Positions 9,540-45,706 are shown, counted from the stretch's first letter. The stretch is DNA of 64,000 nucleotides from an uncultured Spirochaetota bacterium (GCA_963820525.1 CAWGAA010000003.1:384001-448000); one strand, 5' to 3'. Program-made: numbers and translations. The notes: generated from the sequence alone by a model not told the origin.

Positions 9540-9555
9540 TGGCACATATCTTGCA
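9540..9555 (+). promoter_or_regulatory. Sigma-54 (-24/-12) promoter
   Basis: TGGCAC-ATATC-TTGCA matches the consensus. Confidence 0.85.
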
Positions 9556-15551: not shown

Positions 15552-15567
15552 TGGCACGCATTTTGCA
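15552..15567 (+). promoter_or_regulatory. Sigma-54 (-24/-12) promoter of the ORP-type operon
   Basis: TGGCAC-GCATT-TTGCA. Confidence 0.85.
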
Positions 15568-16018: not shown

Positions 16019-16429
16019 ATGCCAAGAGGAGATGGAACGGGACCTATGGGATTTGGACCGATGACGGGAAGGGCCGCCGGGTATTGCGCCGGCTTCGGCA
16101 TGCCGGGATTCATGAACCCGGTCCCCGGATTCGGGGCGGGAGCCCGTTTGGGCCGCGGGCGTGGAGCGGGGTTCTGGGGCGGCGGAGGAGGCCGAGGCTG
16201 GAGGAACATGTTCTACGCCACGGGGCTTGCGGGCTGGCAGCGGGCGGCCATGGGCTGGCCCGCGTTCGCCGGGGGGTTCTACGGAGCGCCCGCGGCCCCG
16301 GCGATGACCAGGGAGCAGCAGGTGGAGACGCTCAAGGATCAGGCGGAGTTGCTGGAGGAGCAACTCGGCGCGATCAAGAGGCGCATGGAGGAGTTGTCGG
16401 CTGCGGGTTCCGCGGAGGCGGAGAAATGA
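16019..16429 (+). CDS. DUF5320-type Gly-rich protein
   Basis: 'MPRGDGTGPMGFGPMTGRAAGYCAG' plus C-terminal coiled coil. Confidence 0.85.
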   Translation: MPRGDGTGPMGFGPMTGRAAGYCAGFGMPGFMNPVPGFGAGARLGRGRGAGFWGGGGGRGWRNMFYATGLAGWQRAAMGWPAFAGGFYGAPAAPAMTREQQVETLKDQAELLEEQLGAIKRRMEELSAAGSAEAEK

Positions 16430-16788
16430 AGATCGCGATAAGCTCCCGCGGGGATGCGCTGGGCGCCGCCGTCGACCCGCGCTTCGGGCGCGCCGCGAAG
16501 TTCATCCTGTTCGATACCGCGACCGGCTCTTTCGAGGTCCGCGACAATGCCCAGAGCCTCAACGCCGCGCAGGGCGCGGGCATCCAGGCGGCGGAGACGA
16601 TCTCCCGCCTCGGGGCCCAAGCTGTCATCACGGGCCACTGCGGGCCGAAGGCTTTCCGGACGCTGCAGGCGGCGGGCATCCAGGTGGTGACCGGCGCCCA
16701 GGGCACGGTGGCCGACGTAGTGGATGCTTTTCGCAAAGGGACGCTCAGACCGGCCGAATCCGCCGACGTGGAAGGGCATTGGGCGTGA
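16426..16788 (+). CDS. NifB/NifX-family protein, orange-protein (ORP)-like
   Basis: 'VDPRFGRA..FILFD', 'GAGIQAA', 'VITGHCGPKAF'. Confidence 0.88.
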   Translation: MKIAISSRGDALGAAVDPRFGRAAKFILFDTATGSFEVRDNAQSLNAAQGAGIQAAETISRLGAQAVITGHCGPKAFRTLQAAGIQVVTGAQGTVADVVDAFRKGTLRPAESADVEGHWA

Positions 16789-17783
16789 GCCGCCCCTCCC
16801 AGATGGAAGGGTCTGCGATACTCGAGGTGGAGGGCATACGAAAATCTTTTGGAGCGGTGCGGGCGGTGGGCGGCGTATCGTTCACCGTATGCGCGGGCGA
16901 GCTGTTCGGCTTTCTGGGTCCCAATGGCGCGGGAAAGACCACGACGATCAACATGCTCACCGGTCTTGCGCGCCCGGATGCCGGCACGATCCGCATCGCG
17001 GGCGTCGACTGCTCGCGAAATCCCAAGGCCGCCCAACACCTGATGGGCATCGTGCCCGACGAGAGCAATCTCTACCCCGAGTTGACGGGCTTTGAGAACC
17101 TGTGCTTTTGCGCGGCCTTGTATGGAATGCCCCGGCGGGCCCGCGAAGAGGCCGCGCGCGGATCGCTCGTCCGCTTCGGCCTGGAAGAGGCGGCCCGCAG
17201 GAAGGTCGCCGGATATTCGCGGGGCATGAAGCGGAAGCTCACGATCGCCGCCGGCATCATCCACAGCCCCAAAATCCTGTTCCTCGACGAGCCGACCACG
17301 GGCATCGATGTCGCCGCCGCCCGACAGATCCGCAGAATCATCGCGGACGTGCAGCTTCACGGAACCACGGTCTTTCTGACCACCCATTATATCGAGGAGG
17401 CGGAGCGGCTGTGCGGCCGCATTGCGTTCATCGTCGACGGCCGCATTGTCCGCATTGGGGCGATCGAGGAACTGATGCGGCAGGCCCAGGACAGACACGT
17501 CGTGGAGTTCGCGGTCCGCGAAGGAGCGGCGGGACTGTGCGAGGCGATTTGCGCGGAGTTCCCGGCTCTCGAGTGCCAGGCCGTCATGGACGACGCGGTC
17601 CGCGTGACCTCTTCCGCGCCGGTGCGCATCGGTCCCCTGGTGAGGCTCATCGAGGAGCACGGGTCCGAGGTCATCGAGGCCCGCAAAATCCGGCAGTCGC
17701 TGGAGGAAGTGTTCGTGCAGGTAACCGGCGTCGAAGCGGCCGTGATGAAGAAAGAAAATGAAAAAAGGGGAGGCGGCGCGTGA
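16785..17783 (+). CDS. ABC-2-type exporter ATP-binding protein
   Basis: GPNGAGKTT, YSRGM, LDEPT; start is 16785 (GTG) or 16803. Confidence 0.92.
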   Translation: MSRPSQMEGSAILEVEGIRKSFGAVRAVGGVSFTVCAGELFGFLGPNGAGKTTTINMLTGLARPDAGTIRIAGVDCSRNPKAAQHLMGIVPDESNLYPELTGFENLCFCAALYGMPRRAREEAARGSLVRFGLEEAARRKVAGYSRGMKRKLTIAAGIIHSPKILFLDEPTTGIDVAAARQIRRIIADVQLHGTTVFLTTHYIEEAERLCGRIAFIVDGRIVRIGAIEELMRQAQDRHVVEFAVREGAAGLCEAICAEFPALECQAVMDDAVRVTSSAPVRIGPLVRLIEEHGSEVIEARKIRQSLEEVFVQVTGVEAAVMKKENEKRGGGA

Positions 17784-18517
17784 AGACATGGATCGCGTTC
17801 TGGAGCATCGTGGCGAAGGACGCGCGGACGTACTATCTCAAGCCGCCCAACATCAGCTGGGGGATCATCTTCCCGCTGGCCTGGGCCGGGATGTTCTTCA
17901 TCAGATCGGGCAGCGGTCTGCAAGGCGCGCGGGATCTGCTGCCGGGATTGATGGTTTTATCCATTCTTTTCGGCACGACGTCGCTCCTGGCGGTCACGGT
18001 GACGTTCGAGAAGAAGGGGCGTTCGTTCGAGCGGCTGCTCCTTGCCCCGATCCCGTTGGAACTGCTCATGCTGGCCAAGACTTTGGGCGCGATTCTCTTC
18101 GGCATCGCGAACGCGTTCGTGCCGCTCCTCCTGGCGGCGTTCCTCACCGACCTTCGGAACCTGAACTGGCCGGTTCTTATTCCCACCGTCGCGTTGATCG
18201 CGGCCGCGTCCACGTTCCTGGGCCTGTTCATAGCGGTCTCCGTCAGTGAAGTATTCGAGGCGCAGACGTTTTCGAACTTCTTCCGCTTCCCGATGGTCTT
18301 TCTCTGCGGCCTTTTCGTCCCCATCGGGCGGCTGCCGCTCTGGCTGCGGCCGCTGGCGTATGTTCTGCCGCTGACATACGGCGCCGATGCCGTTCACGGA
18401 GCAGTCAATGGAAGCAACGCCATGTCCTACCCGCTCGATATGTCCCTGCTCGGGGCCTTCTGCGTCGGTCTATTCATCCTGTGCGTCGTCAACCTGAAAA
18501 GGAAGTGGATCCAATGA
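17780..18517 (+). CDS. ABC-2-type permease
   Basis: About 6 TM helices, 'PMVFLCGLFVP..LP.WL', 'LPLTY'. Confidence 0.9.
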   Translation: MKTWIAFWSIVAKDARTYYLKPPNISWGIIFPLAWAGMFFIRSGSGLQGARDLLPGLMVLSILFGTTSLLAVTVTFEKKGRSFERLLLAPIPLELLMLAKTLGAILFGIANAFVPLLLAAFLTDLRNLNWPVLIPTVALIAAASTFLGLFIAVSVSEVFEAQTFSNFFRFPMVFLCGLFVPIGRLPLWLRPLAYVLPLTYGADAVHGAVNGSNAMSYPLDMSLLGAFCVGLFILCVVNLKRKWIQ

Positions 18518-19389
18518 TCGTTGCCGTCGCCTCCGGAAAGGGCGGTACCGGAAAAACGACTGTTACCGTGAACCTGGCGCTTGCCATGGCGGGACCGGTT
18601 CGCCTGCTCGACTGCGACGTGGAGGAACCGAACTGCCATATCTTCCTGAATCCGAGCATACGGGCGCGCGAGGTGGTCGGCATTCCCGTCCCGGCGGTGG
18701 ACGAGGCGAAGTGCACGGCGTGCGGGGAATGCGGCCGCATCTGCCAATACCACGCCATCGTATCTCTGAAGACCAAGCCGCTCATCTTCCCGGAGCTGTG
18801 CCATGGCTGCGGCGGGTGCGCGAAGGTCTGCCCGACAGGGGCCATATCCGAGATCGAGCACGAGATCGGTGTGGTCGAAACGGGGAGCGCAGGTGCGGTG
18901 GAGCTCGTTCAGGGACGCTTGAAGGTCGGCTTTCCCCTGTCCCCGCCGCTCATCCGCGCCGTGAAGCGTTATCACGATGATGGCGGACCGGTCATCATCG
19001 ACTGCCCGCCCGGAACGTCCTGTCCGGTCATCTCGGCGCTCAGGGGAAGCGACTTCGTCGTGCTCGTGACCGAGCCCACGCCGTTCGGCCTGCACGACCT
19101 CACCCTCGCCGTCGAAACGGTGCGGCAAATCGGCATCCCTTTCGCCGTGGTGATCAACCGCTCGGACGCGGGAGATGGGCGTGTGGCGGATTACTGCCGG
19201 CAGGAAAGTATCTGTGTCCTTCTCGAGGTGCCCGAGGACAGACGCGTGGCCGAGGCATACTCCCGCGGGCAGGCTGCGGTGGAGGCGCTGCCGGGATACG
19301 GGAGGATCTTCCGGCAGCTGTGGAAAAGCATCGAGGAAGCGGCGGATTCGCGGCGTGCCGCTGAAAGGATGGCCCATGCCGACGTATGA
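18514..19389 (+). CDS. MinD-like P-loop ATPase with inserted 2x[4Fe-4S] ferredoxin domain
   Basis: SGKGGTGKT, DCDVEEPN, two CxxCxxCxxxC motifs, DCPPGTSCP. Confidence 0.92.
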   Translation: MIVAVASGKGGTGKTTVTVNLALAMAGPVRLLDCDVEEPNCHIFLNPSIRAREVVGIPVPAVDEAKCTACGECGRICQYHAIVSLKTKPLIFPELCHGCGGCAKVCPTGAISEIEHEIGVVETGSAGAVELVQGRLKVGFPLSPPLIRAVKRYHDDGGPVIIDCPPGTSCPVISALRGSDFVVLVTEPTPFGLHDLTLAVETVRQIGIPFAVVINRSDAGDGRVADYCRQESICVLLEVPEDRRVAEAYSRGQAAVEALPGYGRIFRQLWKSIEEAADSRRAAERMAHADV

Positions 19390-19633
19390 ATACGAGTGCG
19401 CCGCCTGCGGATGCCGATTCGAGCGGTTTCAGGGAATGACCGAGCGGCCGCTGGAGATGTGTCCGGAGTGCGGAGGAGCCGTGCGTCGACTGATCGGGGC
19501 GGGAGCCGCCATACTTCTGAAAGGCGCCGCCTCGCACGGTCACGACAAGGCATGTTCGCTCGAGAGCACCGGCCGTACCTGTTGCGGGCGAAACGAGCGG
19601 TGCGGCAAGCCGCAGTGCGGGAGTGGCGAATGA
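19376..19633 (+). CDS. FmdB-family zinc-ribbon protein
   Basis: 'MPTYEYECAACG..FE', 'CPECGG', Cys-rich tail. Confidence 0.88.
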   Translation: MPTYEYECAACGCRFERFQGMTERPLEMCPECGGAVRRLIGAGAAILLKGAASHGHDKACSLESTGRTCCGRNERCGKPQCGSGE

Positions 19634-19685
19634 CGGCTCGGCCATACAGGTACTGCCATGAAGACGCCTCAGCGAGGCCGGCAAA

Positions 19686-20429
19686 ATGACGTTGGCTTTG
19701 ATCATCCTCTTCTGTCTGCTTGGTTCGGTGATCGCGGTCTGTTTTGCAGGGATAATGCTCCTCCTCAAGGAGGGGGTCTCCAAGCGCCTCACGGCCCACG
19801 CCGTCAATTATGCCACGGGAACGTTGCTCGGAGCGGCGTTTCTCGGCCTGATACCGCAGGCTCTGCATTCTCTGTCCGGTGAACGCGTTCTTTCGGCGGT
19901 CCTGGCAGGAATCGTTCTGTTTTTCCTTCTGGAGAAGCTGATGATTTGGCGCCACTGCCACAGGGGAGAGTGCGAGATTCATTCGAGCGCGGGGGCGCTG
20001 ATCCTCCTCGGCGATTCCATTCACAATTTCGTGGATGGGGTTGCGATCGCCGTGGCATTCTCCGCGTCGATTCCCTTGGGAATTGCCGCCTCCGTTGCGG
20101 TTTTCGCCCACGAGGTACCCCAGGAAGTCGGCGATTTCGCGATCCTGCTGGAAAGCGGCTACTCACGGGCACGCGCGTTCACATACAACGCGATCTCCAG
20201 CACGTCCGCCATTCTGGGAGCCGTCCTCACCTATTTTTTCTTGCTGTCTTTACAAAACGCGGTTCCCTACTTGATGTCGTTGTCCGCCGCAAGTTTCCTC
20301 TATATCGCCCTGGCCGACCTGATCCCGAATCGGCGCGGCGAAGCGAGCCTCCGCGGTTTCGCGTACCAGATCGGGTGGCTCTTTTTGGGCATTGGCACGA
20401 TTGCCGCGCTGCATATGCACCGTCAATGA
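19686..20429 (+). CDS. ZIP-family metal transporter
   Basis: 'GDSIHNFVDG', 'HEVPQEVGDF', HCH loop. Confidence 0.92.
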   Translation: MTLALIILFCLLGSVIAVCFAGIMLLLKEGVSKRLTAHAVNYATGTLLGAAFLGLIPQALHSLSGERVLSAVLAGIVLFFLLEKLMIWRHCHRGECEIHSSAGALILLGDSIHNFVDGVAIAVAFSASIPLGIAASVAVFAHEVPQEVGDFAILLESGYSRARAFTYNAISSTSAILGAVLTYFFLLSLQNAVPYLMSLSAASFLYIALADLIPNRRGEASLRGFAYQIGWLFLGIGTIAALHMHRQ

Positions 20430-37027: not shown

Positions 37028-38430
37028 CTATTCATTCTTGTCAACTTTTTTTTCAGGCAGGGGCGCCGGCGCGAGGGGCCCGGAAGCGCCGCCACCGATG
37101 GAAAGCTCCGAGCCGGGATAGATGAGGTTGGGGTCCTGGATGCCGTTTCGTTTTTGCACCTTGTTCAGGAAATCGAACCAGCTGCCCTGCACGAGCCCTT
37201 CCACCTTGAGCGAGAGGTAGATTTTCCACAGGCTGTCGCCCGCCCTCACGGCATAGGAGAGCCCTTCGGCCTGGTTCCGGGGTTTTTCCTGGTTCTGCGC
37301 GGATGGAACGATCGAGGCCGAAGCATGCTGGAGGGCAGGGGTCCTGGCGGGCATGGGCCGGAGGAAGAGATAAAAGAGGACTGCCAGCGCGATGACGGCG
37401 AATGCGGCGCATCCAAGAAGCACTCCCCGCGGAATGCGAGGGCCTTTCCCTTCCGAAACCCGCCGGGAACGTTGCCCGCCGGCGGGCGAGCTTCTCACCG
37501 CGGGAGGCTGGATATGGAGCACGGGCGGCGGCCCGGCTTTCACGTGAGCGGCTCGTCTGGGGGTCTTTACGGGGGCTTCCTGCTTCACCGCGGCGCCGCT
37601 CCTCAGGACCGGAGCCCTGGCGCGGCGCACCGTCTTCACAACCTTCTGTTTTAGCTCCCGCTTCGAATCAAGCCCCTCTGGCGGACCGCTCGCCCGGGAC
37701 AGGGCTTCATCCGAGAAGTATTTGTCAAGGAAAAAGGAAGCTGAATCGCTGGTGATCCCTTTCCTGCCGGGACCGCTCTCCTCCCATTCCAGCGGATCAT
37801 CCGCCGCGCTTGCCGTCTTTCGAAGCTCGGCCCACAGTGCCCGATAGTCGGCCGACGGGACGCCTCGCCTTTTTACACGCGCTGCAAGGGAAGGCGAGCA
37901 ATATGAGAGAACGGAAAAAATGAGCTGGAAGTTCTCGTTGCTCAAGTCTTCGCGCAGCGAAAGCAGGTAGAGATGCAGAAGGACCGAGGGATTGGCGATC
38001 CTCTTGACCTCCTGCCCGATCTCCAGGCCTTTCTTCACAAGCACGCGCTTCTCCAGATACGTGTATTGCGTAATCTCGAAGAGAAGCGGTTGGGGGATGG
38101 GCACCTCCGCTTTGAAAAGGACCCCGAGACAAACTGGAACTGCGGGAGGCTCAAGCTGCCGGGGATGGTGCAGGTGAAGAACCGAAGAATACGCTGGGGC
38201 GGGGAGCCCATGAGGTGAAGGAGGCAGCCTACCAGGAGCGACGCCTCCGTGGACATCGGGGCACGCTCCATCATCTGTTCTCGGATCCTCTTTCGCGCGG
38301 CAGGGAAGAGCTCGGGCCGAAGCTCGACGGAAAGCGCTTTCCACGTGCCGGGGAGATCCAGCGGCGCGCCTCGAAAAGGGCTTTCGAGGAGGTCTCTCAG
38401 TCGACTTTGGAGCGTTCTTTCCCGGGGCAT
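37028..38430 (-). CDS. Single-pass membrane protein with C-terminal LysM domain; apparent frameshift near 38128
   Basis: ORF 38430-38035 (MPRERTL...QFQFV) joins the frame 'LGVLFKAEV...'; basic linker, TM helix, LysM 'YAVRAGDSLWKI...IQDPNLIYPGSEL'. Confidence 0.7.
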
Positions 38431-38620
38431 ACCGAAGCCATTCGCATCCGCTTGCGGCGGCGCCGCCTCTGGAGCGGAAATGTGCGTGAAAAATCGTAGC
38501 TGAGAGAGGGAAACGTGTCAAGGAAAACTTGTGCCGCCTGTCGCGGGTAATTTTTATTCATTTCAAGGCCGAGAATTATGCTGGGGGCACCGACCGGGAC
38601 CGCCCGCGAAAGGGAAACAT

Positions 38621-39430
38621 GTGCTGACGAAGATCACCAGGTACAAGACTCAAGGCAAGAAGCGGGCTCTGGCCATCTCCTATCGCAGGAGGACGAAGAG
38701 CGCGCTCCTCGCCCTTGCCCGCAGCGTCATCCTCTGCAATACCGTGGAATCTGTGGACGCGGCGGCCGCGCTCGCCCAGGTGATCAGCCGTGAGGGCATG
38801 AACAACCGCAATTACCTGCTGTTTCTCGTTGTGTTGGATACCAATAACCCCCACGTCATCGACGTGCTCATCGGGCGGAGAAACCCGTACCTGCTTTTTT
38901 CTCCGATAAAGCCGAATTGGTTTCTCATCAAGGAGACCTTCCGCATCCTGGCGAAATACAAGGTGAACGAGCTCTGCGAGAAGGCGCTCCTCGCCCTCAT
39001 CGGCGTGGTGCAGAACGCCTATAAAGCATCAAAGGACGGTCACCGAATCTATCCCCTGAGCCTCTCCGCCGTCTACTCGATAGGAAAGTACCTGGACAAG
39101 GAGAAGGACCAGCTGGATGAACGCAACAGGCTGCTCCTGGAGATCCTTTTCGACATCTATTTCGTGGGCATCGACAGCGAGGACAATAACGCAATACGGG
39201 TGGGGATCCGGGCGAACGATATCCGCATGGCGTATTTCGACAACACGAAAAAGATGGTGGACGTCATTCCCCACGTTCTGCTCCTTCACGAAGAGGCCCG
39301 GCCTCCCATCGCCCCGCTTTATTTCGCGGGCGCGGGAAAAAGGGAAGCGCAGGAAAGAAAACCGGGCAAAAATCGCCCGGGGGAGCGCACCCAACCCCGT
39401 TCCCGCCGAACACCCTCACGCCCGAAATAA
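38621..39430 (+). CDS. Uncharacterised alpha-helical family, paralog 1 of 5 (most divergent)
   Basis: Shared motifs NYLLF, N..VID.L.G, GKYLD, Q....NR, IR.AYFD; GTG start after AAGGGA. Confidence 0.8.
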   Translation: MLTKITRYKTQGKKRALAISYRRRTKSALLALARSVILCNTVESVDAAAALAQVISREGMNNRNYLLFLVVLDTNNPHVIDVLIGRRNPYLLFSPIKPNWFLIKETFRILAKYKVNELCEKALLALIGVVQNAYKASKDGHRIYPLSLSAVYSIGKYLDKEKDQLDERNRLLLEILFDIYFVGIDSEDNNAIRVGIRANDIRMAYFDNTKKMVDVIPHVLLLHEEARPPIAPLYFAGAGKREAQERKPGKNRPGERTQPRSRRTPSRPK

Positions 39431-39432
39431 AT

Positions 39433-39461
39433 TTGACAGCCCGCCGACGACGAACTACACT
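39433..39461 (+). promoter_or_regulatory. Sigma-70 promoter for paralogs 2-4(5)
   Basis: TTGACA-N17-TACACT. Confidence 0.75.
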
Positions 39462-39516
39462 ATTACTATAGGCATTACATTCGGGCATCGGCTCGTGAGT
39501 CCGCAGGGAGGCAGAA

Positions 39517-40233
39517 ATGCTTCAGTTTCCGATACTCACATTCTGGAGCGAGGATGACCTGTACAAGCTCCAGGTGCAGGCGGTCTCCTGGTTCCTGAGA
39601 TGCGACTCTCCCCGCAGCGTGGAGGCGTCTCTGGAGTTCGCGCGATACCTGAACTCCAAGGGCCTCGACAGCGACAACTACCCGCTCTTCCTGGAGATGC
39701 TGAGGAACGAGAACGGCTTTGTCGTGGAAGCGCTGGTAGGCAGGGAGAAGGCTTTCGATCTGTTCACGCGCGTGCAGCCGAACCCCTATATCCTCGATTT
39801 CTGTTTCCAGATGCTTCGTCAGTACTCGGTTGGAGGGGTGCACGATCTCACCCTGGAGATCATCTTCGGCATCCTGTACCGCACGTATCACAGCGCCAAG
39901 GAGGGGTACATGCTCCATCCCCTCACCGTCGAGGACGTGAACTCCATCGGGAAATTCCTGGACAAGTCCCGGGACCAGAACAATTCCATCAACCGGTTCA
40001 TCCTCGACATCCTCACGGACATCTCGGAGTATCGCTCCATCAACAACGAAAACCCCGCCGTCGACAGAGTATCCTCTCACGCGACGGCTATCCGAAACGC
40101 GTTCTTTGACAGGAAGAAGAAAATGGCCAGCGTGATGCCCTCGGAGATCCTGGTACGCAAGGAGTATTCCGAGACTCTCGTGCGGCCGAGGAAGCAGAAG
40201 AAATTCACCGATACCGAGAAAACAGGAGAATGA
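39517..40233 (+). CDS. Uncharacterised family, paralog 2 of 5
   Basis: NYPLF, QPN, GKFLD, NRFILDIL, IRNAFFD; GGGAGG RBS. Confidence 0.85.
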   Translation: MLQFPILTFWSEDDLYKLQVQAVSWFLRCDSPRSVEASLEFARYLNSKGLDSDNYPLFLEMLRNENGFVVEALVGREKAFDLFTRVQPNPYILDFCFQMLRQYSVGGVHDLTLEIIFGILYRTYHSAKEGYMLHPLTVEDVNSIGKFLDKSRDQNNSINRFILDILTDISEYRSINNENPAVDRVSSHATAIRNAFFDRKKKMASVMPSEILVRKEYSETLVRPRKQKKFTDTEKTGE

Positions 40234-40246
40234 GAGGAGGTAGCGC

Positions 40247-40939
40247 ATGGCTCAAATGGACGAGTTCAACAGGGAGGTGTGGTCGGAGGATTCGATATTC
40301 CGGGTCGAAAACCACATCATCAACAACATCTTCGCCGGTAGGACGGTGGACGCGGTGGAGGCGGCGATCACCTACACGTCTTTCCTGCGCAGGAGCGGCC
40401 TGACCAATGAAAACTACCCGCTGTTCCTCAAGCTGCTGGAAATGGACAATCACTTCGTGATCGACTCCCTGCTGGGGAGCACGGACCCCTTCCTGTTCCT
40501 CACCCCAATCCAGCCCACCAAGCACCTGGTATCCACGTGCTTCAGGCTGCTCACCAACTGGCACCCCGGAGGCATCTACCCCAAGACCCTCGCCATCGTG
40601 CTGGGTGCCCTCCAGGCGACGTACAGCTACGCCAAGGACGGATACAAGATCCACGATGTGTCCATCAATGACGTGAACAACCTGGGCAAGCACCTGAACA
40701 AGGAAAAGGGCCAGGACGAGCCGGTGAACAGGGCCATCCTCGATATTCTCGACCGCCTTGCCTCCCTCGAGGGACAGGGAGACGACGCGATGGAGCTCAT
40801 CGCCCGGCAGTGCAACGTGATCCGCGGCAACTTCTTCGACAAGCGCCGCAAGATGGAAGACGCGATTCCCCAGGTTCTCCTGGTCAAGTCCGACTTCCTC
40901 GTGAAAGAGGTTCTTCCGAGCCTCGTGTTCGAAGATTGA
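40247..40939 (+). CDS. Uncharacterised family, paralog 3 of 5
   Basis: AVEAAITY, NYPLF, HPGG, GKHLN, NRAILDIL, IRGNFFD; GAGGAGG RBS. Confidence 0.85.
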   Translation: MAQMDEFNREVWSEDSIFRVENHIINNIFAGRTVDAVEAAITYTSFLRRSGLTNENYPLFLKLLEMDNHFVIDSLLGSTDPFLFLTPIQPTKHLVSTCFRLLTNWHPGGIYPKTLAIVLGALQATYSYAKDGYKIHDVSINDVNNLGKHLNKEKGQDEPVNRAILDILDRLASLEGQGDDAMELIARQCNVIRGNFFDKRRKMEDAIPQVLLVKSDFLVKEVLPSLVFED

Positions 40940-40961
40940 CGATTCGACAGGAGGGTGAGAT

Positions 40962-41819
40962 ATGGTAATTCTTGACAGACAGAAGACCTATACGGCAAAG
41001 GAGATCGCGGCCATCGAGAACAAGATGCTGGGCGGGATTCTGGCGTGCCGGACGACGGAAGCGGTGGAGGCTGCCATAACGTACGCCCGCTTCCTGAACA
41101 AGACCGGCTTGACGGCGGAAAACTATCCTCTCTTCATCAAGGTGCTGGAGATCGGCAACCACTGGGTCATCGATGCGCTCATCGGCACCCGGGATCCGTT
41201 CCTGTTCTTCAGCTCCATCCAGCCCAACTACCAGCTGCTCACAGCGGCGTTCAACCTGCTGGCGGAAAGACACCCGGGGGGCCTGTACGCGAAGTCCCTC
41301 TCCGTGGTGCTGGGCATCCTCCAGGCGGCCTACAACGTCCCCATCGACGGGTACAAGATCTACGGCCTGACGGTGTCGGACCTCAACGCCCTGGGCAAGC
41401 ACCTGGACGAGGAAGCCGGCCAGGAGGATTCGCTCAACCGCTGCATCCTCGACATATTGGAGAAGGTTGCGCAACTGGAAGGCCTGGATGCGGCCAACCG
41501 CGACATGGAAGAGGTGGCGATCCACGCCAACGAGATCCGAAACTTCTTCTTCGACAGCACCAAGCACTTGAACGAGGTCATCCCGCCCGTGCTCCTGGTC
41601 CGCATGAGCTACAAGGACTTCGAGGTGCCGCCGCGCAAGGAAGTCGAGTTCACCAAATCGAAGCTGTTTGACACGGACAAGATCGCCAAGGAGCAGATCA
41701 ACATCAGGGTGTCCTCGCGCGGTCAGGGCACCACCAAGGAAGCCAAGGAAGCGCCCGCGCCGGCTGCCCCGAAAAAGAGCACCGAATCTTCCGGCGGCTC
41801 CGGGCGGAAGACCAAGTAG
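40962..41819 (+). CDS. Uncharacterised family, paralog 4 of 5, with Ser/Thr/Lys-rich disordered tail
   Basis: AVEAAITY, NYPLF, HPGG, GKHLD, NRCILDIL, IRNFFFD. Confidence 0.85.
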   Translation: MVILDRQKTYTAKEIAAIENKMLGGILACRTTEAVEAAITYARFLNKTGLTAENYPLFIKVLEIGNHWVIDALIGTRDPFLFFSSIQPNYQLLTAAFNLLAERHPGGLYAKSLSVVLGILQAAYNVPIDGYKIYGLTVSDLNALGKHLDEEAGQEDSLNRCILDILEKVAQLEGLDAANRDMEEVAIHANEIRNFFFDSTKHLNEVIPPVLLVRMSYKDFEVPPRKEVEFTKSKLFDTDKIAKEQINIRVSSRGQGTTKEAKEAPAPAAPKKSTESSGGSGRKTK

Positions 41820-41921
41820 TCGAGTCGGATCTCACGGGGGCGCCGCGGGGTGCGAGCGCGCTCTTAAGTCCCGTGTCGCCCTTCACTGTTCGCCTGAGCT
41901 TGAGGAAACGAAGGTAAGCCC

Positions 41922-42626
41922 ATGGACGTGAAAAAGCTGAAAGAGGAAGCGAAGGTAGGCCATATATCCCAGGATTATATAGACTACCTCAAATACAGGT
42001 TCATCATGGAGGTGCTGGACTCCCCTGATACCCCATCGGCAAACGCCCTCTGGGCATACGCGAGCTTCTTGAACGATCACGGGATCAACAGCGACAACTA
42101 TCCACTGTACATCGAGCTTCTTGCCAGCAACAACAAATCCGCCATCGACGCGCTTCTGGACGGCCACGATCCGGAGAAGTACTTCGATTGCGTGACGCCC
42201 AACCCCTATATCGTCAGGGCCACCTTCGAGACCTTTGCCCGGTTCAAGAGCAACGAGATCTACGATAAATCCCTGAGGGTATTCCTGGGATTCCTCTTCA
42301 AAGTGTACGAGTCCTCGGAGGTGGGCTACCAGTTGTATCCCCCATCAATCGCGGATGTGAACAACCTTGGAAAGTTCCTCGACGAATCGAAGGACCAGGA
42401 GTTCCCTCTCAACCGGGGCATCCTCGACTGCCTGGGGTGTCTGGCGGATTTGGAGAAGCCCCATGAGACGAGCATCGAAAAGCGGGAGCTCGCCGCTCAA
42501 GCCGGAAGGATCCGCTCTGATTTCTTCGACGCCAAGCGCCGCCTGAACCAGTCCATTACCGAGGTGATACTGGAGAAGGCCAAAAAGCCGACCTTCGGGG
42601 TACCCCCCGAGCATATCTACGGATAG
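41922..42626 (+). CDS. Uncharacterised family, paralog 5 of 5
   Basis: NYPLY, PNPY, DVNNLGKFLD, NRGILDCL, IRSDFFD. Confidence 0.85.
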   Translation: MDVKKLKEEAKVGHISQDYIDYLKYRFIMEVLDSPDTPSANALWAYASFLNDHGINSDNYPLYIELLASNNKSAIDALLDGHDPEKYFDCVTPNPYIVRATFETFARFKSNEIYDKSLRVFLGFLFKVYESSEVGYQLYPPSIADVNNLGKFLDESKDQEFPLNRGILDCLGCLADLEKPHETSIEKRELAAQAGRIRSDFFDAKRRLNQSITEVILEKAKKPTFGVPPEHIYG

Positions 42627-42673
42627 GGGGGCGGCCCCAGACCGACCCCTCCCCTTTCCCCCCGCTCCCATCA

Positions 42674-43600
42674 TCAACCCTTCTTGCCCTTTCCGTAAAT
42701 GGCCCGGAAGGTCTTTCCCATGTCCAGGTACTTGTCCTCTCCGGAGGGTGCCGCAGCGGCGGGGAACTGGCTCTCGAAATAGCCGCGCACATAGTCGATT
42801 CGCTTGAGAATGTTGGCCGCGACCGTCCTTGCCAGCGTGGAGCGGTCTTTCTGGAAACGGAGGCACACCTTGCAGAGCTCCAGGAGCATCTTCTTGCCTA
42901 CCGGCTTGAAGGCGTTGAAGCGGATGTTGAAAAACTGCATGTCGTAGCCCTGGAAGTGCTCCAGCTTCAGGGGGGTCAGGTATCGCGTCTTCTCGGTTCT
43001 CTCCCAGCCGAAGGTTTTAGGACGTCCCTTGATCTTCACGCCCTCGTGGAGCAGGTCCACGTTCGAGTAATCGATGGCGATGACGATCTGGTCGTCCTTG
43101 GAGTTGTATCGGATCATGTAGTTGTTGGGGTTTCTGTCCTCATCGTAGTAGATCCAGCGGTTGATCAGGTCCAGGAGGAGCTGCTCCTTGAGCTGAAGGA
43201 TGTCGGTATAGTTGGCCCCTGAAAGCTGCTCCGCATGGGTGATGATCTTCGTCGCCTTGTACAGCGTGCCGCCGATGCGCGTCACGATGGTGGGGGCTGA
43301 AATGGTCCGCGAGAAGAAATCGAGGAAGAAGCAGATGGAGCCCATCGCGGCCCGCACCGCCTCATCCGCCGCGATGGGCTTCACGATCCAGCTCTCCCCG
43401 GGGTTGTCCCGCTCGACCGCGCCGACGTAATCGCGCACCTCCGCGAAGAAGGGGATTTTCAGGGACTGATCTATGGACAAAAGGTCGTCCACGGAGAGCT
43501 TCTTCAAGAGCTGCTCGTAGCTCTGGTCCGCGCACAGGAGATGAATCAGCTCCGCATCGCGGAGAAAGCGCGGAACCTCGGAATAGTCGAAGTATCCCAT
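42674..43600 (-). CDS. Putative atypical kinase (HipA/CtkA/PI3K-PI4K-like fold)
   Basis: 'WIVKP' (ATP Lys), 'DEDRNPNNYMI' (DRxxxN catalytic loop), 'IVIAIDY' (Mg-binding Asp). Confidence 0.7.
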   Translation of the reverse strand: MGYFDYSEVPRFLRDAELIHLLCADQSYEQLLKKLSVDDLLSIDQSLKIPFFAEVRDYVGAVERDNPGESWIVKPIAADEAVRAAMGSICFFLDFFSRTISAPTIVTRIGGTLYKATKIITHAEQLSGANYTDILQLKEQLLLDLINRWIYYDEDRNPNNYMIRYNSKDDQIVIAIDYSNVDLLHEGVKIKGRPKTFGWERTEKTRYLTPLKLEHFQGYDMQFFNIRFNAFKPVGKKMLLELCKVCLRFQKDRSTLARTVAANILKRIDYVRGYFESQFPAAAAPSGEDKYLDMGKTFRAIYGKGKKG

Positions 43601-43639
43601 CGAATACCTCCCGTTGACAGCGTGCCCGAAAGCCCGCGG

Positions 43640-44587
43640 CTAGCGATAGTCGTCCATGACGTAGCGGCGCGGCTTGAGCTCGAGATCCGCGTACTTCACG
43701 TTATAGCCGGAAGAGGAGCGAATCGACAGGTACGGGCATATCGTCTCCAGCGTGTCGTAGAGGATGACGTGATCGTGGGTGCCGAGGATATCGATCCAGA
43801 TCGAATCCTGCTCTCCCCACGTCCACATCGGGTTGTGGCCCACGATGAACGGGATGCTCTTGGGGCAGCCCAGGAGTCGCCTCGTCTCGTCCAGGTCCTC
43901 GGGCCCGTACTCCTTCATGCTCGGGGTGGAGCGCGTCTCGTTAAGCCTGTTCCACGTGAGCTGCCAGAAGTAGTTGTCGAAATGCCGAACATTGATGAGC
44001 TCGTTCCTGGTGATCCCGCCCCGCACGGGGCCGGCGTGCGTTGCCAGGAACCAGCGGTGGATCACGAACAGGGGCAGCGCATCGTAGAGCTCCTGCATCA
44101 GCTCCACGTACCGCTTGCCCCGCGCCTTGGCCAGCGCCTCCCGCCAGAATAGGCCCTGCTGGATGCCGCGCTTGGAGAGCTGGGGGTTGAGGGAGTCGTG
44201 GTTGCCCAGGATGTAGATGACGTTGTCGGGATACTCGTTGAGAAGCTCAATGATGATGTCCATGGTCTCGATGGAGGAGTCCATTTCGTAGGCGAAACCG
44301 GTCTTGTCGTTATGGACGGCGTCGCCGAGGAAGAGCAGCACCGCCTTGTTCTGCCGGACCTTCGACAAATTGTCCGAATCCTTGAGGATTGCGCGAAGGT
44401 TCTTGAAGTTGCCATGCAGGTCCCCAATGACTATGAACTCCCTCTTCTCGCTGCGAGCAAACTCGATCAGCCCCCCGGGGCGGCCGTCGGAGCCGGCGGG
44501 ACGCAAGCTCTCATCCAGGGAGAGGACCTTGGCCACAGCGTCTTGAAGGAGTTTGGAGTGTCGATCGCGAACGCCGCGGACGCCCAT
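43640..44587 (-). CDS. Calcineurin-like metallophosphoesterase (PPP-type Ser/Thr phosphatase-like)
   Basis: GDLHG, GDAVH, GNHD, THAG, VGHNP motifs. Confidence 0.88.
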   Translation of the reverse strand: MGVRGVRDRHSKLLQDAVAKVLSLDESLRPAGSDGRPGGLIEFARSEKREFIVIGDLHGNFKNLRAILKDSDNLSKVRQNKAVLLFLGDAVHNDKTGFAYEMDSSIETMDIIIELLNEYPDNVIYILGNHDSLNPQLSKRGIQQGLFWREALAKARGKRYVELMQELYDALPLFVIHRWFLATHAGPVRGGITRNELINVRHFDNYFWQLTWNRLNETRSTPSMKEYGPEDLDETRRLLGCPKSIPFIVGHNPMWTWGEQDSIWIDILGTHDHVILYDTLETICPYLSIRSSSGYNVKYADLELKPRRYVMDDYR

Positions 44588-44594
44588 TGCTGCC

Positions 44595-45605
44595 TTACTG
44601 GAAGTCGACCAGCTCCACTTCGAAGACCAGAAACGAGTCGGGAGGAATGGCGCCTGGATATCCCCTCTCGCCATAGGCGAGCTCCGGCGGAATCACCAGC
44701 AGCCGCTTCTCGCCCTTCTTCATTGCGGCGAGCGCTTCGTTCCATCCCGGGATCACCTGCCCGATCTTGAACTGGGCGGGGCTGCCCCGCTCGATCGAGC
44801 TGTCGAATACCCTTCCGTCGAGGAACTTCCCCGTGTAGTTCACGGTCACCAGAGCGCCGGCCGCGGGGCTCGGGCCGTTTCCCGTCTTGAGCGCCTGGTA
44901 CATGAGGCCGGATTTTGTGGTCGTGAGCTTGGGCCACCGCTTCTGGATCTGAGTCAGGGCGGACTTCCTGGCTTCGGCACGCTTCTCCCCAAGGCCTGCC
45001 TTGGCTTTAGCCACCATGGCGTCGAAGCCGGCCTGGCTGGCCGTGAACGCCTTGGCCGCAGCGCCGATGCGCAGGATCTTGACGCTCACGATCTTGTCTC
45101 CCTGCTTGACGCTCTTCACCACGTCCATGCCCTGCACGACGCGGCCGAATACCGTGTATCCGCCGTCGAGCTGGGGGAGCTCCTTGAGAGTGATGTAGAA
45201 CTGGCTGCCGTTTGTGTTGGGCCCGGAGTTGGCCATGGCGAGGATGCCCGGCGCGTCGTGCTTCAGCTCCGCCACGATCTCGTCGGGAAACGAGTAGCCC
45301 GGGCCGCCGGTGCCGTCTCCTCGGGGATCGCCGCCCTGGATGATGAAATCCGCCACGACGCGGTGGAAGGTGAGCCCGTCGAAAAAGTGCTTGCCCTTCG
45401 AGCCGTTGGCGGAGATCGTTCCCTCGGCAAGACCGACGAAGCTTGAAACCGTCAAGGGAGCCTGCTGGAAGGCCAGGCTGCACACGATCAGTCCCCGGGA
45501 TGTATTGATTTGAGCGTACAGGCCGTCCGGCAGGCTCGTGGTTTCGGCGTGAGCGGCCATAACGGCCACCACAAGGGAAGAGGCGATAAGAAAAGTGTAT
45601 TTCAC
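44595..45605 (-). CDS. Cyclophilin-FKBP dual peptidyl-prolyl isomerase with signal peptide
   Basis: 'FHRVVADFIIQGGDP', 'MANSGPNTNGSQFYIT', 'VNYTGKFLDGRVFDSS', 'VIPGWNE'. Confidence 0.93.
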   Translation of the reverse strand: MKYTFLIASSLVVAVMAAHAETTSLPDGLYAQINTSRGLIVCSLAFQQAPLTVSSFVGLAEGTISANGSKGKHFFDGLTFHRVVADFIIQGGDPRGDGTGGPGYSFPDEIVAELKHDAPGILAMANSGPNTNGSQFYITLKELPQLDGGYTVFGRVVQGMDVVKSVKQGDKIVSVKILRIGAAAKAFTASQAGFDAMVAKAKAGLGEKRAEARKSALTQIQKRWPKLTTTKSGLMYQALKTGNGPSPAAGALVTVNYTGKFLDGRVFDSSIERGSPAQFKIGQVIPGWNEALAAMKKGEKRLLVIPPELAYGERGYPGAIPPDSFLVFEVELVDFQ

Positions 45606-45706
45606 GCGCCAGTGATAGCCCCTTCCACCGGCCGCTGTCAAGGGACTCACGATGGAGCGTTTACAAAGCCTGATCCGAGGGGTAAATTCTGGATTGAGGC
45701 TACCGA

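Follow-up and report, generated by a model that had tools for sequence, protein, structure and literature searches.

Several described systems approach, in one part or another, the locus presented here. Bacterial operons such as PknB/PstP and PrkC/PrpC pair a Hanks-type kinase with an opposing phosphatase, and the CotH kinase phosphorylates the Bacillus spore coat proteins CotB and CotG, driving their assembly. The phosphoprotein phosphatases (PPP) carry a second motif, GDxVDRG, with a phosphate-binding Arg, and include protein phosphatase 2A (PP2A), a metallophosphatase paired with a helical-repeat scaffold in the holoenzyme. The kinase CtkA and the type II phosphatidylinositol 4-kinases (PI4K-II) represent a further, atypical kinase fold; PI4K-II, MavQ, and LepB phosphorylate phosphoinositides. 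We analyzed a 64,000-nucleotide stretch of DNA from an uncultured Spirochaetota bacterium (GCA_963820525.1, CAWGAA010000003.1:384001-448000; hereafter the window), in which the region 37028-45605 harbors five tandem paralogous genes that converge on genes for a kinase-like protein and a metallophosphatase. We find that the paralogs, the kinase, and the phosphatase are linked across spirochaete genera, and we tentatively propose that they form a phospho-switched complex of small α-solenoid proteins. The core genes of the locus, followed by their two neighbors, are as follows, with paralog types according to the orthogroups described below:

38531-39430, plus strand: paralog 1, from the open reading frame (ORF) list; par1-type orthogroup, exact start uncertain
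39517-40233, plus strand: paralog 2, from the ORF list; par2-type
40247-40939, plus strand: paralog 3, from the ORF list; par3-type
40962-41819, plus strand: paralog 4, from the ORF list; par4-type
41922-42626, plus strand: paralog 5, from the ORF list; par5-type
42674-43600, minus strand: kinase-like gene (308 residues), converging on the paralog array
43640-44587, minus strand: calcineurin-like metallophosphatase (Pfam Metallophos); the ORF extends to 44674
37028-38426, minus strand: gene for a bitopic LysM membrane protein, diverging upstream of the array (window ORF 37028-38521)
44595-45650, minus strand: cyclophilin and FKBP peptidyl-prolyl isomerase (PPIase; Pfam 147.6 and 110.6 bits)

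All genes of the array described in an initial annotation of this DNA were recovered from the ORF list, with successive paralog genes spaced by 86, 13, 22, and 102 bp. The operon-like gaps reported on the opposite strand are also present: 39 bp (43601-43639) between the kinase and phosphatase genes, and, with the ATG at 44587 taken as the phosphatase start, 7 bp between the phosphatase and PPIase genes; this ATG is probably the true start because homology to relatives begins near residue 36-43 of the longer ORF.

Each of the known systems resembles this locus in part. Like the Hanks-type operons, it pairs a kinase with a candidate opposing phosphatase, and a Pkinase-domain protein is encoded in 35 of 79 related loci; however, the module kinase is not Hanks-type, the phosphatase is not PP2C-type, and no PASTA sensor is present. 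CotH, a structural neighbor of the window kinase, offers the same concept of an atypical kinase dedicated to structural proteins encoded alongside it, yet the paralogs have no sequence relation to the coat proteins, the host is not a spore-former, the proteins of this locus all look cytoplasmic, and a dedicated phosphatase is present here. As in the PP2A holoenzyme, a metallophosphatase (motifs GDxHG and GNH[ED]) would be paired with predicted helical-repeat proteins, although PP2A uses one 15-repeat scaffold, whereas the predicted solenoids of this locus are 230-residue single-domain proteins from four to five paralogous genes; in addition, the GDxVDRG motif of PPP enzymes corresponds to GDAVHND in the window phosphatase. 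Finally, the window kinase is predicted to have the same overall fold as CtkA and PI4K-II, with a Lys on an N-lobe strand, a D-x-x-x-x-N loop, and a later Asp, but it lacks sequence-level membership in that group, its loop reads DEDRNPNN, and its genomic partners are different. In the literature searchable as full text (outside bioRxiv supplements and subscription journals), nothing describing the module was found. In our judgment it fits no kind of system so far described; its parts come from known superfamilies, and the whole has no described counterpart.

The five tandem genes had been described as one family without an assignment, and this is what we observe. Their products align across the whole core, with 27-35% identity to the first, 28 invariant columns, and a mean column identity of 45%; Pfam, NCBIfam, and PADLOC hold no family for any of the five, and membership in ARM, HEAT, or other curated repeat families was not found by sequence for any of them. 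A five-paralog profile searched against the organism's own 5.05-Mb genome returns exactly these five places (paralog 1 at E 6.3e-98). A sequence profile search of the PDB with the paralogs gave nothing meaningful (best E 0.28), and the best Protein Atlas score for par3, 0.86, is under the level counted as above a lead. An AlphaFold2 model of paralog 3, built from a 53-sequence alignment (predicted local distance difference test [pLDDT] 93.2, predicted template modeling score [pTM] 0.87), is all-helical with 12 helices. Foldseek returned 0 hits for this model in the PDB at E ≤ 1e-3, and in an exhaustive comparison with VIA the ARM/HEAT solenoids scored best at Z ≤ 8.0, which may merely reflect a common arrangement of helices. 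Paralog 3 thus looks like an ARM/HEAT-like α-solenoid by a generic fold match only, and this fold is one typically used in protein binding. Polar residues kept in all paralog types (N56, N68, K148, Q156, N161, R193, and D198) suggest, from the alignment, a common binding groove. Beyond the core, paralog 1 has a basic C-terminal tail, and paralog 4 a long C-terminal tail rich in Ser, Thr, Lys, and Pro. Within the paralog 4 tail, at 41777-41783, public contigs of two sequencing runs (X2 and X3) carry compensating small indels, one base out and one in, which indicates strain variation in this disordered tail.

The paralog family is small. Among the 8000 best-word candidates, 264 proteins belong to it at E ≤ 1e-3, and an exhaustive search with a hidden Markov model (HMM) of the family matched 226 of 1,835,955,588 cluster representatives, 87 of these at E ≤ 1e-30; because just 226 of 1.84 billion representatives match, we regard the family as a lineage-specific invention. 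Every source name met among the matches and cluster members is "hypothetical protein," and no fused or longer form was found. One 354-residue protein that joins a paralog N-terminal part to an epimerase was set aside since it looks like a gene-call chimera.

We then consider the company that these genes keep. A locus scan with one genome per species, restricted to the best 80 of 168 stretches with a relative, yielded 79 distinct loci, of which 69 are labeled spirochaete, five SAR324 or Deltaproteobacteria, and five "bacterium" only; Marispirochaeta, Alkalispirochaeta, Sediminispirochaeta, and Treponema are among the genus labels. Locus contents were determined by tblastn with the window proteins and by clustering all ORFs of 80 or more residues de novo. 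The phosphatase is encoded in 62 of the 79 loci, the kinase in 56, and both enzymes in 55. Where the array is flanked by at least 3 kb on each side, as in 40 loci, the corresponding counts are 37, 33, and 33, and the loci without the enzymes are mostly short contigs. The proposal in the initial annotation that array, kinase, and phosphatase stay together across genera is therefore sustained, and the converse outcome that it had named, arrays in other genomes unlinked to the two enzymes, is not what we find for either enzyme. The seven full-flank loci without a kinase comprise four SAR324-type loci together with L048, L051, and L074. In all nine cases searched, the kinase is encoded elsewhere in the same genome: five of five SAR324-type genomes and four of four spirochaetes (L048, L051, L074, and L052). 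In the SAR324-type loci, the phosphatase still adjoins the array, and the kinase is found on another contig. Behind the relocated kinase gene, three of the SAR324-type genomes share a gene for one conserved protein of ~306-335 residues (L131:8604-9611, L132:10252-11172, and L133:8221-9213).

Co-occurrence was analyzed across 401 evenly sampled Spirochaetota genomes, of which 17 match the paralog profile (G017 at E 8e-4 only) and 12 the kinase profile; all 12 lie within the 17 with paralogs, and the kinase was never found in a searched genome lacking the paralogs. Paralogs without the kinase occur in G007 (94% complete, with a single paralog), G017, G077 (92%), G098 (83%), and G140 (85%). The G007 locus (L042; G007:C33, 7843-11400) is reduced, with one paralog, the N-terminal part of the LysM protein, and an unusually long phosphatase ORF of 2196 bp. 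The Pkinase-domain protein mentioned above (~650 residues; 39.2 bits, with a weak AAA_16 match) follows the array in its 35 loci and is absent from the window locus; no HRD motif is present in the sequence inspected.

The third gene of the convergent run, in which the initial annotation had noted kinase motifs, indeed encodes a protein with a predicted kinase fold, in which the D-x-x-x-x-N loop and the ID[FY] motif are invariant. Its AlphaFold2 model (pLDDT 88.4) has 33 PDB hits in Foldseek at E ≤ 1e-3, with PI4K-II α on top and PI4K and phosphatidylinositol 3-kinase (PI3K) as the top hits. In VIA, where the background level for this comparison is 7-8, the highest score is for Helicobacter pylori CtkA (3akj; Z 15.6 over 214 residues, root-mean-square deviation 3.3), followed by PI4K-II α (4pla; Z 15.2 over 235 residues), Fam20 (Z 13.9), the Legionella lipid kinase MavQ (Z 13.1), HipA (Z 12.4, with further HipA matches at 10.3-10.4), CotH (5jda; Z 12.2), and actin-fragmin kinase (Z 11.6). 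These scores well over background, together with the Foldseek hits, identify a bilobal kinase fold, and on this model the protein is an atypical kinase of the CtkA/PI4K-II/Fam20/HipA structural group that belongs to an unnamed family. Neither Pfam nor NCBIfam has a family that matches it at E ≤ 0.1, sequence membership in PF00454, HipA_C, CotH, or Fam20C was not found, and of 25 relatives a single one reaches PF00454, at E 0.12; a sequence profile search of the PDB with the kinase returned nothing even at E 10. All 25 kinase sequences have W149 and the nine-residue block D153-Y161 (DEDRNPNNY), and conservation of K74 and D177 is 90% or more. The model places K74 on a strand, the D155..N160 loop between a long helix and the two strands that come next, and D177 after those strands, an arrangement that, as a motif pattern read without superposition, fits the layout of a Lys, a catalytic loop, and a DFG-type Asp. 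With these residues in place, the kinase looks catalytically competent, as does the phosphatase described below; activity of both is a prediction from sequence and model.

The same structural comparison bears on what the kinase might phosphorylate. A different account of the locus is that the kinase phosphorylates a membrane lipid or an envelope precursor, the metallophosphatase reverses this, and the solenoids serve as membrane-proximal adaptors, the whole controlling envelope or membrane identity. The high scores of PI4K-II α and MavQ, the PI4K and PI3K hits that lead the Foldseek list, and the nearest named Protein Atlas clusters, which as leads carry LepB_N and PI3_PI4_kinase (a third being HipA_2), all speak for such a role, as does the linkage of a LysM membrane protein in 26 of the 79 loci. 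However, protein kinases (CtkA, HipA, CotH, and actin-fragmin kinase) score equally or nearly so, lipid-synthesis genes are not conserved in the loci, and translations of the core proteins predict a membrane segment in none of them. By analogy, the solenoids would then resemble the adaptors in the complex of PI4KA with TTC7 and EFR3. We consider a lipid or small-molecule substrate in this sense quite improbable.

The phosphatase matches Pfam Metallophos (PF00149) at 54.1 bits, over a cut-off of 21.5, and its domain carries the metal-ligand motifs GDxHG and GNH[ED]; across 63 sequences, GDLHG, GD..H, GNHD, H.GP, and GH are invariant. Against the sequences of solved structures it shows weak similarity to PPP catalytic subunits (BSU1 at E 0.0012, the PP2A catalytic subunit PP2A-C at E 0.03, and PP5 at E 0.08, in a range to 0.09), and in NCBIfam it comes closest to ApaH, with 19.7 bits where the cut-off is 176. 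In the second motif, GDAVHND, the GD and His are invariant and the Arg of the PPP motif is missing, and we therefore class the enzyme as PPP-like rather than as a PPP member.

That these best matches are PPP catalytic subunits, PP2A-C among them, raises the possibility of a PP2A-like holoenzyme, in which the paralogs would be alternative regulatory or targeting subunits that steer the phosphatase, and perhaps the kinase, to outside substrates, making the locus a signaling hub. Consistent with this, the phosphatase is the tightest-linked partner of the array (62 of 79 loci, and 37 of the 40 that have full flanks) and remains adjacent in the SAR324-type loci from which the kinase has moved, and Foldseek weakly matches the paralog model to the PP2A scaffold chains 2iae_A and 2npp_A, among others (E ~0.5). 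These structural matches to the PP2A scaffold subunit are, however, far under significance (template modeling score 0.22-0.25), and the conserved neighbors point to no external substrate. Were the paralogs alternative subunits, their number would moreover be expected to fluctuate and single types to be lost readily, yet across families four paralog orthogroups are kept, as detailed in the next paragraph. On balance a holoenzyme of this kind appears doubtful.

A maximum-likelihood tree of 74 paralog sequences, drawn from the window and 15 loci (ORFs of at least 190 residues), resolves the paralogs into well-supported orthogroups, which from their placement in the tree are ancient, older than the divergence of several spirochaete families. 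Every tree-sampled locus has the par3 and par4 types, which show the shortest branches and so are the two slowest-evolving; par5 and par1 types are also widespread in this sample, and within the 15 loci the par2 type is confined to the window's clade, SAR324-type loci, and L062. In all 79 loci, par4 directly follows par3. The par3 type has 67 invariant columns in 75 orthologs, which share 59-92% identity across families (these orthologs were chosen at ≥55% identity to the window protein, and the floor of 59% is in part by construction), and the par4 type has 58 invariant columns. That the duplications are old and that each copy was retained argues against redundancy among the paralogs. The orthogroup trees are largely congruent. 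In the subtrees of par3 and par4, the SAR324-type copies nest within the spirochaete clade closest to the window, and in those of par2 and par5 they lie beside that clade, a placement that suggests transfer from a spirochaete; the loci L063-L070, from SAR324, Deltaproteobacteria, and unnamed metagenome-assembled genomes, encode paralogs 65-69% identical to window paralog 3. No relative was found on viral contigs or on plasmids. Our preferred reading is that free-living spirochaetes inherit the module vertically on the chromosome and that SAR324-type bacteria also possess it.

These evolutionary data also address a role in defense, or one akin to a toxin-antitoxin system, in which a HipA- or CtkA-like kinase would be a toxic effector that the phosphatase restrains and for which the paralogs act as sensors. 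HipA toxins are indeed among the structural neighbors of the kinase, HipA_2 is one of the Protein Atlas leads, the module is spread patchily through the phylum (17 of 401 genomes), and it has undergone at least one apparent transfer into SAR324-type bacteria. PADLOC, on the other hand, matches none of eight of the nine proteins and gives the phosphatase one weak, irrelevant TIR-like hit (E 0.014, 13.1 bits), and the family is confined to this one array in its own genome, with no mobile-element genes seen among the ORFs around it and no relatives on viral contigs or plasmids. The strong conservation of par3 and the congruent orthogroup trees are likewise unlike what is seen in fast-evolving defense genes. 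We judge a defense function very improbable.

In three genomes (L062, L123, and G317), a three-paralog block is present twice, ~7-8 kb apart, around the phosphatase-kinase genes: at L062:9245-11478 and 16042-18167, at L123:10001-12195 and 18206-20400, and in G317:C1 at 2269251-2271425 and 2277404-2279581. The two copies are identical or nearly so in each case, and could reflect recent segmental duplication, gene conversion, or an assembly artefact.

The protein encoded on the other side of the array consists of an N-terminal domain, a low-complexity linker, one hydrophobic segment predicted from the translation, and a C-terminal LysM domain. The LysM match (PF01476, cut-off 20.9) is a marginal pass both in the window (22.1 bits) and in the ortholog in L055 (22.5 bits), and by this domain match the protein is a putative peptidoglycan binder. 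The window ORF, 37028-38521, has an implausible N-terminus. Residues 48-106 of the L055 protein match the frame 38035-38430 on the minus strand and residues 110-248 the frame 37028-38137 on the same strand; the window gene thus switches frame at a G-run (a C-run on the plus strand). Public contigs of four sequencing runs were compared here, and an extra C behind position 38121 is present in three of the three that cover the site (X1, X3, and X4; X2 does not cover it), so that we attribute the frame break to a 1-nucleotide deletion in the assembly, although one of the covering runs may be the window's own source and this evidence is then not fully independent. The gene is intact, from the ATG at 38426 to 37028. 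In de novo clustering, the protein at first grouped in 13 loci; a 611-residue neighbor in 11 other loci has the same N-domain (BLASTP E 3e-5) followed by a long low-complexity linker, one hydrophobic segment, and a LysM-like C-terminal end, and an iterated profile places the N-domain family in 26 of the 79 loci, in two locus arrangements. Pfam has no family for this N-domain, and a candidate kinship between it and the paralogs was rejected (hhalign probability 0.1). The inclusion of the LysM protein in the module, as originally suggested, thus applies to some lineages, those with the N-domain family, and does not extend to the other loci.

Taken together, these results lead us to favor, tentatively and at somewhat short of an even chance, a phospho-switched hetero-oligomeric solenoid complex with a dedicated atypical kinase and a PPP-like metallophosphatase. 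The core would consist of four to five non-redundant, small ARM/HEAT-like α-solenoid proteins together with the kinase and the phosphatase, and we infer that the solenoid paralogs would assemble into a fixed hetero-oligomeric complex in the cytoplasm. The kinase would write, and the phosphatase erase, phosphate on this complex or on its docking partners, with the Ser/Thr-rich paralog tails and the disordered linker of the LysM protein as candidate phosphosites, and assembly or the binding of partners would be switched by the phosphorylation state. In two lineages, that of the window among them, the bitopic protein may tie the complex to the inner membrane and to peptidoglycan, through its cytoplasmic N-domain on one side and its periplasmic LysM domain on the other. 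A more specific version, in which the paralogs build a hetero-oligomeric cytoplasmic ring, coat, or filament that is switched by the kinase and phosphatase, bolted to the wall by the LysM protein in some lineages, and active in envelope organization or morphogenesis of free-living spirochaetes, strikes us as unlikely; if correct, it would amount to a phospho-regulated solenoid scaffold of the eukaryotic kind.

Several observations weigh against a dedicated, phospho-switched solenoid complex. The solenoid assignment is generic, since the best Z of 8.0 is below the level at which VIA is informative for helical repeats. The closest structural relatives of the kinase include lipid kinases (PI4K-II and MavQ) and the glycan/protein kinase family Fam20, from which it follows that its substrate may not be a protein. 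Similarity of the phosphatase to PPP enzymes is weak, at E 0.0012 at best, and its second motif lacks the PPP Arg. Linkage is loose in some genomes, where the kinase lies ~15 kb off or on another contig, and G007, at 94% completeness, encodes one paralog and the phosphatase, the kinase not being found in this genome. Finally, the LysM protein is absent from 53 of the 79 loci, and envelope tethering therefore cannot be a core feature.

The dual PPIase adjoining the phosphatase, which the initial annotation had counted as part of the set, does not belong to it: the gene occurs in none of the 79 loci and in none of the 12 loci of the phylum sample, even where paralog 3 of the relative shares 91% identity. 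We regard it as a chance neighbor outside the conserved module, and a hydrophobic N-terminal segment in the translation suggests that the protein is exported. Over its cyclophilin domain, at 45148-45438, the summed contig depth is 45-115 versus ~6-17 elsewhere, with many short, partly fitting contigs; this jump probably arises because conserved cyclophilin sequence of other organisms maps here as well.

As for the wider context, the GC content of the region, 0.58-0.62, falls within the range of the window (0.57-0.66). No tRNA is present in the whole window, and a scan of it against Rfam gave 0 matches. The σ54 consensus pattern has 22 matches in the window versus 22.7 expected, with none convincing at the locus; two exact matches to this consensus lie at 9540-9555 and 15552-15567 on the plus strand, both outside the region studied. 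A scan for σ70 promoters and terminators gave counts close to the shuffled expectation.

Three of the four recurrent families at these loci, namely the solenoid paralogs, the atypical kinase, and the N-domain of the LysM protein, are unnamed in Pfam, NCBIfam, and PADLOC. The set is kept together and co-retained across many spirochaete genera and in SAR324-type bacteria, with a degree of conservation typical of core machinery, and the defined orthogroups, mutable catalytic residues, and list of carrier genera provide experimental handles. If the paralogs do form a complex controlled by the kinase and phosphatase, the module would be a new type of bacterial cellular machine, and would represent a rare bacterial pairing of helical-repeat proteins with a PPP-like phosphatase and a PI4K-like kinase, a combination familiar from eukaryotes.

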